Assembly (NCBI RefSeq): GCF_024700885.2
Contig: NZ_CP117016.1
DNA: 64,000 nucleotides
Strand: one strand, 5' to 3'
From: Escherichia coli
GTDB taxonomy: Bacteria > Pseudomonadota > Gammaproteobacteria > Enterobacterales > Enterobacteriaceae
The notes under the pieces are model-generated. The model saw nothing but the letters and a program-made list of their open reading frames with translations. It ran no database searches and was not told the origin of the DNA. Each line of letters begins with the position of its first letter. Positions within the stretch are counted from its first letter, which is position 1. This document shows, piece after piece, positions 223-59,987 of this stretch. The position numbers and the translations under genes are program-made.

Positions 223-323
223 TGGGTTTGAAATGATTACTCCCTTGCCTGCAGGAAATCAATGCCACCAGAAACAGAGTATAAAAAAGGGGTGCAGGAG
301 GCCAAACTTTAACAATTCAATAC

Positions 324-342
324 GCGGGGTTTTACCCCCGCG
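324..342 (-). terminator. GC-rich hairpin (CGCGGGG-loop-CCCCGCG) 6 nt downstream of hokX stop; putative hok mRNA terminator
   Basis: Perfect 7-bp GC stem read directly; on the minus strand it is followed by the U-containing tract GUAUUGAAUUGUU. Confidence 0.5.
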
Positions 343-348
343 TGGTGG

Positions 349-501
349 CTACTTCTTCGATTCGTAAGCGAGAACTGCCTTAAACTCCATACCACGTTCT
401 CTGATACTCAACTCACACAACGAGTCGCCTACCATCAGCGTGAATCCCAGTACTGTACAACACAGTACGATGATTGCCACAAGGGCATATTTTGTCAGCA
501 T
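349..501 (-). CDS. hokX: Hok/Gef-family type I toxin (50 aa), hokX-like
   Basis: Minus-strand ORF not in the ORF track (under 60 aa): [50 protein letters not shown]. Hydrophobic N-terminal helix plus the C..E..R.G..E.A...YES signature of Hok proteins; GGAGG 7 nt upstream of ATG; stop TAG at 349-351. Confidence 0.75.
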
Positions 502-765
502 GTCTTGCCTCCCTGCAAAGAAGAGACTAACATTCGAATTGCTTAGGTTCGAACGCTGGCCTCAGGTTGATAGAAATATCGCCTGGGGCTTTTGTCCATC
601 TGGAACCTCGCGAATGCTTAACGCCAGACAGCCTCAAGCACCCAACTCCATTCTATACCTGTTAATTCTCCCTGCGATGTTCACCTTTAAATGCCGGAAT
701 GCTGCTCGCAAAATAAAAACGCCCCCATCATTTCTGACAGAGGCGTTTAATTTATCCGGCAATAT

Positions 766-1500
766 TTACCCTTCGTGTAACCCACATTCCCTTTTTAAGC
801 CAAAGAAACGCGTTTCTTCTTCCGCCATGCCGGGTTCCCATTTACGGGTTGTATGGGTATCGCCCACCGATAAATATCCTTCGTCCCATAATGGGTGATA
901 TTTCAGGCCATGTTTTTGCAGGTACTGATAAATAGTTCGGTTATCCCAGTCGATAATCGGCAGCACTTTAAATACGCCACGCTGAATTGCCAGCACCGGT
1001 AAATTGGCGCGGCTGCCGGATTGTTCACGGCGCAGGCCAGCAAACCAGGTTTGCGCGTTAAGTTCTTTCAGCGCCCGGTTCATCGGTTCGACTTTGTTGA
1101 TGTCATTGTACTTTTCAATGCCTTCAACGCCCTGCTCCCACAGTTTGCCGTAGCGCGCTTCCTGCCAGGCGGCGCTTTCGGTAGCGCGGTACACTTTCAG
1201 GTTGAGCTTGAGTTTGTCCGTTAACTCGTCAATAAAGCGGTAGGTTTCCGGGAACAGATAACCCGTATCGGTCAGGATCACCGGGATATCCGGGTGAATC
1301 TGATTCACCAGATGCAGGCTCACCGCCGCCTGAATGCCGAAACTGGAAGAAAGTACATATTCACCGGGCAGATTATCCAGCGCCCAGGCAACGCGGCCTT
1401 CAGCATCCAGTTTTTCCAGTTCGGCGTTAGTTTCTGCCAGCGCCAGAATGCGATCTACCTTCGGCAGTTCGTTCAGGGCGTTTAGATCGAGTTTGGACAT
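766..1500 (-). CDS. cysH: phosphoadenosine phosphosulfate (PAPS) reductase
   Basis: ORF 766..1653 trimmed to internal ATG at 1500 (244 aa, [25 protein letters not shown]...); recognisable CysH sequence; first gene of the cysJIH arrangement read 3' to 5'. Confidence 0.95.
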
Positions 1501-36624: not shown

Positions 36625-36993
36625 AATAAAAAAAGGGAGCACTGTATTCACAGTGCTCCCGGTTCGTTTCGCAGCATTCCAGCTACTTTTGTTGCTCCCT
36701 GCTCATCCTTGACAACTTTTCCTCTGGCCTTGCGGCCAATCGTTCATCCTGAACTATTGCTTCCTGCTCACACCACCCCGATGTGATACTTCATCCTGAA
36801 GTGTCCCTGGCCTTCCTGACCCACCGAATCATCCTGACCGGTTCTCATTCTCCATCCTGGAGGTGTCCTTTAACGCGTCCTGCGTCATCCTCTTCGCTTC
36901 ATCCAGAAGCCTTTCCCTGAAACACCATCCTGGTGTGTCCTTCAGAAGTGTCATCATCCTGATGTTCACTTCGTTGTCTGACTCCCTGTCGAC
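36625..36993 (-). ncRNA. csrB: CsrB small RNA (CsrA-sequestering)
   Basis: Minus-strand transcript of about 369 nt from GUCGACAGGGAGUCAGACAACGAAGUGAACAUC (5' end at 36993) to hairpin GGGAGCACUGUGAAUACAGUGCUCCC plus U-run (36627-36660). At least 8 exact CATCCT (AGGAUG in the RNA) plus many more CAGGA/AGGA motifs on the plus strand. Confidence 0.95.
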
Positions 36994-55163: not shown

Positions 55164-55369
55164 ACTTCCTGAGCCGGAACGAAAAGTTTGATCGGAATGC
55201 GTGTTCTGGTGAACTTTTGGCTTACGGTTGTGATGTTGTGTTGTTGTGTTTGCAATTGGTCTGCGATTCAGACCATGGTAGCAAAGCTACCTTTTTTCAC
55301 TTCCTGTACATTTACCCTGTCTGTCCATAGTGATTAATGTAGCACCGCCTAATTGCGGTGCTTTTTTTT
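55164..55369 (+). ncRNA. gcvB: GcvB small RNA
   Basis: ACTTCCTGAGCCGGAACGAAAAGTTT... with GU-rich TGTGATGTTGTGTTGTTGTGTTTGCAATTGG region, ending in terminator AGCACCGCCTAATTGCGGTGCTTTTTTTT; divergent from gcvA. Confidence 0.93.
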
Positions 55370-59691: not shown

Positions 59692-59768
<77 letters not shown>

Positions 59769-59801
59769 ATTAAAATTTGATGAAGTAAAGCAGTACGGTG
59801 A

Positions 59802-59878
<77 letters not shown>

Positions 59879-59910
59879 ATCAAATTTGATGAAATAAAGC
59901 AGTACGGTGA

Positions 59911-59987
<77 letters not shown>

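Follow-up and report, generated by a model that had tools for sequence, protein, structure and literature searches.

The hok/sok module next to cysH in Escherichia coli is already known under the name hokX/sokX, and the literature uses it as a landmark of the iap-CRISPR-cysH region. Hok and sokX were found next to cysH in 90% of UPEC strains (PMC12736100), and an additional hok in the cysH-iap intergenic region was described as homologous to hokX of E. coli B (PMC7232551). A 'hok sok system' is an element of CRISPR-I arrangements and is present in all strains except the cas-E2 variant (PMC3903273). The pair is also listed among TA genes (PMC11598369). The hok loci of K-12 were described as non-functional (PMC7232551, citing Pedersen and Gerdes 1999). 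In EHEC EDL933, 93 RNA-seq reads and 28 footprint reads were assigned to 'sok_15/sokX', with an RCV of 0.63, above the 0.355 threshold of possible translation in that paper (PMC5331693 Table 1). The hokX leader region is transcribed at a low level in this strain, with ribosome footprints (PMC5331693).

We analysed a window of 64,000 nucleotides, that is, the whole stretch of E. coli DNA under study. Its first 1.5 kb is 100% identical to E. coli strain 1190 (NZ_CP023386). The initial annotation had proposed a hok/sok-like toxin-antitoxin locus between iap and cysH, and this was borne out by Pfam, by Rfam, by an antisense RNA and by the pairing of the two mRNA ends. These in silico family tests (Pfam, the Rfam leader model, the antisense RNA and the 5'/3' fold-back) all agree with a hok/sok identity and thus support it. 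The region around 349-620 very probably represents the known chromosomal hokX/sokX type I toxin-antitoxin module of E. coli in an intact copy. Every regulatory element is in place in the window and there is no IS. The locus is therefore real but ordinary, with a prior name and a prior literature. The span of 349-620 originally given to it was too short, as the locus extends from about 283 (the 3' U-run) to about 655 (the hok -10 box). The coordinates of the features are listed in Table 1.

Table 1. Features of the hokX/sokX locus and its neighbours, in coordinates of the window.
Feature	Position	Strand	Description and source
iap	ends at 222	+	strain 1190 annotation
U6 run after fbi	283..288	-	predicted 3' end of the full-length mRNA (~361 nt); edge of the conserved module
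fbi-like 3' element GGCCUCCUGCACCC	290..303	-	complementary to the mRNA 5' end; ~20-nt spacer after the GC hairpin
Post-stop GC-rich hairpin	322..343	-	8 bp, -17.7 kcal/mol, z = -4.5; just after the hok stop
hokX CDS, Hok/Gef toxin	349..501	-	ATG start, 50 aa; mechanical ORF list, Pfam, RefSeq
hok mRNA leader	486..643	-	Rfam RF01794 ('sok', CssrC), model 1-157/157, 111.7 bits vs gathering score 59
12-codon uORF, mok-like	495..533	-	starts ATGTTAGTC...TGCTGA; UGA stop overlaps hok codons 2-3 (AUGCUGA, ACATGCTGA)
Predicted sokX promoter	505..533	+	-35 TTGCCT 505-510, 17-bp spacer, -10 TAACAT 528-533, start G541
hok Shine-Dalgarno GGAGG	508..512	-	6 nt before the hok AUG; read from sequence
Sok-target stem-loop of leader	523..563	-	Rfam consensus helix; fold -17.1 kcal/mol, z = -4.4
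SokX antisense RNA	541..599	+	homology to annotated K-12 sokX b4701
5'-terminal element GGGUGCUUGAGGCU (tac-like)	630..643	-	first Rfam model position; predicted TSS near G643; pairs with 290-303
Predicted hokX -10 box TAGAAT	650-655	-	weak -35 near 673-678; conserved in HokX-type leaders
cysH terminator	717-748		intrinsic; just upstream of the hok promoter; consensus promoter/terminator scan
cysH	766-1500	-	strain 1190 annotation

The 50-codon minus-strand ORF described earlier is present, with the motif LCEL..RERG..EF.A.LAYES. Pfam PF01848 (HOK_GEF) matched residues 5-46 over its full length (model 1-42/42, E=6.3e-10). RefSeq annotates the same interval in strain 1190, 349-501 on the minus strand, as WP_000956458.1, "Hok/Gef family protein". 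The alignment to hok paralogs that had been suggested placed the peptide closest to K-12 HokE (39/50 residues identical, 78%), and the suggested Rfam run gave the score of RF01794 in Table 1. Direct comparison gave 24/50 for HokA, 19/51 for HokC, 16/50 for HokB and 21/52 for the R1-type plasmid Hok. The NCBIfam equivalog model of HokA (NF007290) scored 53 bits, below its curated cut-off of 89, and thus the peptide is not HokA. The generic NCBIfam Hok family model (NF007279) gave 39.5 bits, also below its curated cut-off of 73; it is too narrow for the HokX subfamily, which Pfam still matches.

Substitution patterns show strong purifying selection on the peptide, both within E. coli and between genera. 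Relative to O157, we found five synonymous and no nonsynonymous differences. Comparisons with E69, E1V33, three Kluyvera, Pluralibacter, ESNIH1 and Enterobacter gave pN/pS ratios of 0.11-0.23, and pS reached 0.56 at most. Our search of the literature found no published toxicity test of HokX.

The Rfam model RF01794 covers the whole hok leader. To read its orientation we used an R1-type IncFII plasmid, on which the model matched the sense strand (432-603 (+) of the extracted segment, 87.2 bits), spanning from the known 5' end of the mRNA (GGCGCUUGAGG) as far as the hok AUG. Therefore, the 'sok' model is oriented as the hok leader, and Sok is its partial complement. Annotation pipelines that copy the strand of RF01794 would put 'sok' on the wrong strand. 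The 152-nt 'sok_15/sokX' of the EHEC study appears to be such a wrong-strand call.

The sequence TAGAAT, followed by 6 nt and GGGTGC, is common to the HokX-type leaders of Escherichia, Kluyvera, Pluralibacter and Escherichia sp. ESNIH1. This shared arrangement places the predicted -10 box at 650-655 and the predicted start near G643. The hok Shine-Dalgarno sequence is conserved as GGAGGCAA in all HokX/HokE-type leaders, and its complement is the Sok -35 box. The loop of the target stem-loop (CCUAAGCAA) is complementary to the 5' end of SokX, and the AUG of the upstream ORF lies in the 3' arm of the stem. Two strain substitutions, G556A and A534G, keep the pairs of this stem-loop. We also considered a YUNR U-turn motif in the loop; it fits this strain and does not fit the O157 or K-12-type alleles, so no claim is made for it.

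A hairpin had been noted at 324-342. It is real, at 322-343 (Table 1), and its sequence, ACGCGGGG...CCCCGCGU, is conserved in all orthologs. The predicted hok mRNA runs from 643 to about 283 on the minus strand (~361 nt), and its two ends are complementary. The predicted duplex has 6 + 6 base pairs round a 2-nt internal loop, 12 pairs in total, at -24.1 kcal/mol, a value reached by 0/1000 shuffles of the 3' segment. This pairing was absent from the unconstrained MFE fold of the 361-nt mRNA. When the fold was constrained to contain it, the energy was -126.9 kcal/mol vs -127.2 kcal/mol for the MFE, only 0.3 kcal/mol worse; thus the closed and open folds are nearly isoenergetic.

The comparison of loci adds to the picture of the fold-back. 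The fbi element lies at stop+41 to +46 in every ortholog examined, and the two ends show compensatory changes across hokX, hokB-type and Enterobacter loci, that is, covariation across the family. The 5' end GGGUGCUUGAGGC of hokX is partnered by the fbi element of Table 1. In K-12 hokB the 5' end is GGGUGCCUGAGAC and its 3' partner UCUCAUGGCACCC; in the hokB-type locus of Escherichia sp. E1V33 they are GGGCGCC and GGCGCCC; and in an Enterobacter MAG they are ...GAGAC and AUCUC.... Within E. coli, C301U changes a G-C pair of the duplex to G-U. Homology with genomes in which cas3 is adjacent stops at window 281-284, exactly after the U-run.

A plus-strand, Sok-like RNA had been expected across about 500-600, and homology to K-12 places SokX at 541-599. 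The annotated K-12 sokX (b4701, NC_000913.3 2887353-2887411, +, between cas3 and cysH) maps there with 2 mismatches (57/59 identical), and the 42 bp upstream of it (499-540) are identical in K-12 and the window. We read the sokX promoter from the sequence relative to the K-12 sokX 5' end. It matches the consensus at 8/12 positions, as does the hok promoter, and neither was listed by the generic consensus promoter scan, since the threshold of that scan was 9/12. SokX is predicted to fold into a long hairpin behind a single-stranded 5' tail, with CUUUUG after the hairpin (-22.7 kcal/mol, z = -3.6). Its 5' end, GCUUAGG, is complementary to CCUAAGC in the leader loop.

A 12-codon ORF that overlaps the hok start had been reported on the same strand, and we found it at 533..495 with its TGA stop over hok codons 2-3. 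It reads AUG UUA GUC UCU UCU UUG CAG GGA GGC AAG ACA UGC UGA, and its stop lies 7 nt into hok. Its description as mok-like needs refining: the ORF is real and conserved in Escherichia, but it differs from a canonical long mok, and orthologs vary in the frame and length of this ORF. In the hokX leader we found no long overlapping mok in any register, as starts are lacking both in the long-mok register and, upstream, in the hok frame. K-12 mokB and mokC start about 57-58 nt upstream, in the 5' arm of the target stem, where hokX has UCG.

The same uORF peptide is encoded in APEC O2-211, O157:H7, two IS421-bearing strains, the K-12 remnant, E. coli E69 and Escherichia sp. E1V33. The O157 substitution G496A turns the uORF stop from UGA into UAA and is synonymous in hok. 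Outside these genomes the frame is variable. Kluyvera genomosp. 1 has an extra AUG at -50 in the same frame as the uORF (18 codons, same stop), and in K. intermedia the -50 AUG is in frame with hok. In Pluralibacter the upstream frame ends 14 nt short of hok, after 5 or 11 codons. The -33 AUG of K-12 hokE, Escherichia sp. ESNIH1 and the Enterobacter MAG is in frame with hok. An AUG at -32/-33 was nevertheless found in 8/8 HokX/HokE-type loci examined (Escherichia hokX counted once), whatever its frame. E. coli E69 carries two hokB-type loci in tandem, about 500 bp apart on one contig (~12592 and ~13115, minus strand). In place of the mokB frame of 55 codons, one of them has a 20-codon upstream ORF whose end overlaps hok as AUGA.

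The mechanism that we propose is modelled on the established hok/sok of plasmid R1 and is drawn by homology, with the tests made here being those of sequence-level features. The weak hok promoter would give a stable mRNA of ~361 nt, as in the R1 model. In the full-length mRNA the 5'-terminal element would pair with fbi, and this closed fold would bar both translation and antisense binding. Slow 3' trimming would then strip off fbi, so that the leader refolds and the target stem-loop is exposed. The short, unstable SokX would use its single-stranded 5' tail to bind the loop and 5' arm of the target stem and, once bound, would cover the ribosome-loading region of the uORF. Where SokX is lacking, translation of the uORF would take ribosomes through the hok Shine-Dalgarno sequence and end inside AUGCUGA, after which hok might be read. 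On depletion of SokX, the 50-aa Hok would be made and inserted in the inner membrane, and the cell would be depolarised or killed. It is by homology only that we infer the transcript ends, processing, SokX action, uORF coupling and toxicity of the hokX locus. What this study shows directly is the sequence features, the family membership, the conservation and covariation, and the purifying selection.

SokX ends 8 nt upstream of the uORF AUG and would cover the site at which a ribosome loads; this makes mok-like coupling plausible but unproven. It is possible, although we put it forward only tentatively, that the classical long mok was replaced in the HokX/HokE subfamily by a short uORF of variable frame (12 codons in Escherichia hokX, ending in AUGCUGA). 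In that case termination-reinitiation, or unfolding of the hok Shine-Dalgarno sequence by ribosomes, would activate hok, and the uORF peptide would be irrelevant. Another reading, to which we give a similarly modest chance, is that the uORF is untranslated or unneeded and that hok is read directly from its own strong GGAGG after the leader refolds. SokX would then trigger RNase III cleavage or decay, or stabilise an inhibitory fold, rather than block a mok-like ORF. The uORF has no recognisable Shine-Dalgarno sequence (CCUAAGCAAUUCGAAUG), which argues for direct initiation, and mokE is unannotated in K-12. On the opposite strand, the uORF AUG is read as part of the Sok -10 box (ATGTTA / TAACAT); this by itself could account for the conserved AUG. 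Thus its conservation is not attributable to coding alone and is no proof of translation. In keeping with this, K-12 hokB has AUC as the equivalent triplet while the -10 box is kept. The frames of Pluralibacter, which stops short of hok, and of hokE, ESNIH1 and Enterobacter, which are in frame with it, also fit direct initiation better than coupling. However, the AUG at -32/-33 is present in all eight loci, Escherichia keeps the uORF stop over the hok start even where UGA became UAA in O157, and SokX ends where a ribosome would load on the uORF. In plasmid R1, hok expression requires mok translation, as Thisted and Gerdes reportedly found in 1992, and this too speaks against direct initiation.

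The intact module might instead be a decaying and functionally silent relic like the chromosomal hok loci of K-12, hok/sok by descent with a toxin that is never made here. We consider this improbable. It would fit the IS150 and IS186 elements that flank or interrupt K-12 hokA, hokC and hokE, the description of the K-12 hok loci as non-functional (PMC7232551), the loss, truncation or IS disruption of hokX in many genomes, and the low transcript levels in EDL933. However, all elements are intact in the window with no IS, purifying selection on the peptide is strong both in E. coli and between genera, and conservation extends to the leader, promoters, hairpin and fbi, accompanied by compensatory changes. 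That the ORF arose by chance in the iap-cysH spacer, beside an ordinary terminator hairpin, has almost no probability. Its length does fall short of the cut-offs normally set for ORFs, and termination of iap could be all that the hairpin at 322-343 does, but Pfam, Rfam, the RefSeq annotation, cross-genus orthologs and pN/pS contradict this idea and already refute it.

The hok ORF is present in 4,220/5,426 complete E. coli genomes, single-copy and chromosomal only. Identity is 95% or higher in all copies except two, and 40/40 sampled rows are annotated as Hok/Gef. About 22% of the complete genomes do not have the hok ORF, and IS elements often disrupt the locus; hokX is dispensable. WP_000956458.1 lies in the same cysH-adjacent position in diverse strains, including APEC, O157:H7 and ST131-type O25:H4. 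We compared about 15 hok loci at the sequence level and encountered several arrangements. The iap gene is directly adjacent, as in the window, in 1,128/5,426 complete genomes, including O25:H4. In other genomes cas3 is adjacent, with the boundary at window ~282. An IS421/IS186-type element may lie in the post-stop hairpin, with a 12-bp target duplication (327-338) and fbi about 1.3 kb away, or IS1 may lie inside the hok ORF, with a deletion. In the K-12 type all sequence beyond the hok ATG is replaced by the cas3 side, and in some genomes the locus is completely absent. About 850 genomes (4,220 minus 3,369) have the ORF without contiguous 3' sequence, and most of them probably belong to the IS class, judging from two examples.

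The post-stop GC hairpin is a recurrent target of IS186/IS421. IS421 is inserted there with the duplication of 327-338 in two hokX strains, and K-12 IS186A and IS186B lie about 20 bp after hokC and hokE. Such an insertion after the hok stop parts the toxin mRNA from its 3' fold-back element.

HokX orthologs with 45-48/50 identical residues and a cysH-like gene in the locus were found in Kluyvera genomosp. 1, K. intermedia, Escherichia sp. E1V33 and E. coli E69, and hok is beside cysH in 2/3 Kluyvera genomes. As cysH is adjacent in all four, the position of hok predates E. coli. A scan of a genome collection (298 Gb) with the 16-mer GATATTTCTATCAACC gave mostly chance matches in unrelated phyla among the matches listed; after an HMM screen, at least 11 real hok ORFs in at least 10 loci were left. 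Because rearrangement breakpoints fall exactly at the edges of the module, it might influence the turnover of the neighbouring type I-E CRISPR-Cas locus, although this is a weaker possibility.

The end of iap and the hok stop are 126 bp apart, and the interval between iap and cysH (223-348) lacks type I-E cas genes and any annotated CRISPR array. A plus-strand ORF of 44 codons at 233-367 is antisense to the 3' end of hok. K-12 encodes the antisense microproteins YsaE and YncP opposite the 3' ends of hokA and hokB; we asked whether this ORF might be their counterpart and rejected the idea. The start of the ORF lies in iap-proximal sequence that is absent elsewhere, other genomes have in-frame stops, there is no ATG after the fbi complement, and the ORF is not conserved in other hokX genomes.

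On the other side of the module, the region of the cysH intrinsic terminator (708-750, minus strand) has a 14-bp stem and a T-run. It gave a weak ctRNA_p42d match (24.9 bits vs gathering score 50), which we regard as a chance resemblance between terminator hairpins. A sub-threshold Rfam match to naRNA4 (CssrE) was found at 1513-1554 in the cysH-cysI spacer (33.6 bits vs gathering score 59.5), and this palindromic GCCTGATGCGACGC...GCGTCTTATCAGGC unit looks like a REP element. Elsewhere, the window contains CsrB (36625-36984, minus strand, 382.9 bits), GcvB (55164-55369, plus strand, 198.4 bits) and three tandem tRNA genes with identical scores (59692-59984, plus strand), all of which are ordinary chromosomal context of E. 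coli.

This copy of hokX/sokX adds little that is new. Its one mildly unusual trait is the short uORF of variable frame where a canonical mok would stand, and this uORF is a small, testable mechanistic question. The case shows that raw sequence, read without tools, can reveal a toxin-antitoxin locus that is missed by ORF-size filters. Exact coordinates are now given for all regulatory parts of an intact copy, which K-12 does not have. Strains of this kind, not K-12, are therefore the right background for testing chromosomal Hok activity. For rearrangements of the iap-CRISPR-cas-cysH region, the module offers a practical marker as well.

Compared with known systems, hokX has the architecture of R1 hok/sok (parB). 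Both have a 5' end of the form GG(G/C)(U/G)GCUUGAGGC, a structured leader, antisense Sok and hok, in that order. The two next share a GC hairpin after the stop and then a 3' element complementary to the 5' end, and they match the same Rfam model. In the R1-type locus the 3' element, GAAGCGCC, follows the post-stop hairpin and is complementary to the 5' GGCGCUU. The peptides, however, are identical at only 21/52 residues. Another difference is that in the R1-type locus, hokB and hokC, mok starts about 57-58 nt upstream and reads far into or through hok, whereas hokX has no such start. Since hokX is chromosomal, post-segregational killing of plasmid-free cells is inapplicable to it.

Among the paralogs, K-12 hokE/sokE is the nearest. 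Its peptide shares 39/50 residues with HokX, and its leader is laid out alike, with an upstream AUG in the corresponding position and the 5' end of Sok 8 nt upstream of that AUG. IS186 lies just after the hokE stop, as IS421 does after hokX in some strains. However, hokE is located at ybdK-entD, and its spacer is 4 nt longer before the hok AUG, which puts the upstream AUG in frame with hokE. The hokX/sokX of K-12 is the same locus as that in the window, at the same site next to cysH with sokX 57/59 identical, but only the leader and sokX are left there; homology is lost precisely at the hok ATG, and cas3 lies on the far side. The hokX of E. coli B was reported to be inactivated by an IS (PMC7232551), whereas the copy in the window is intact and abuts iap.
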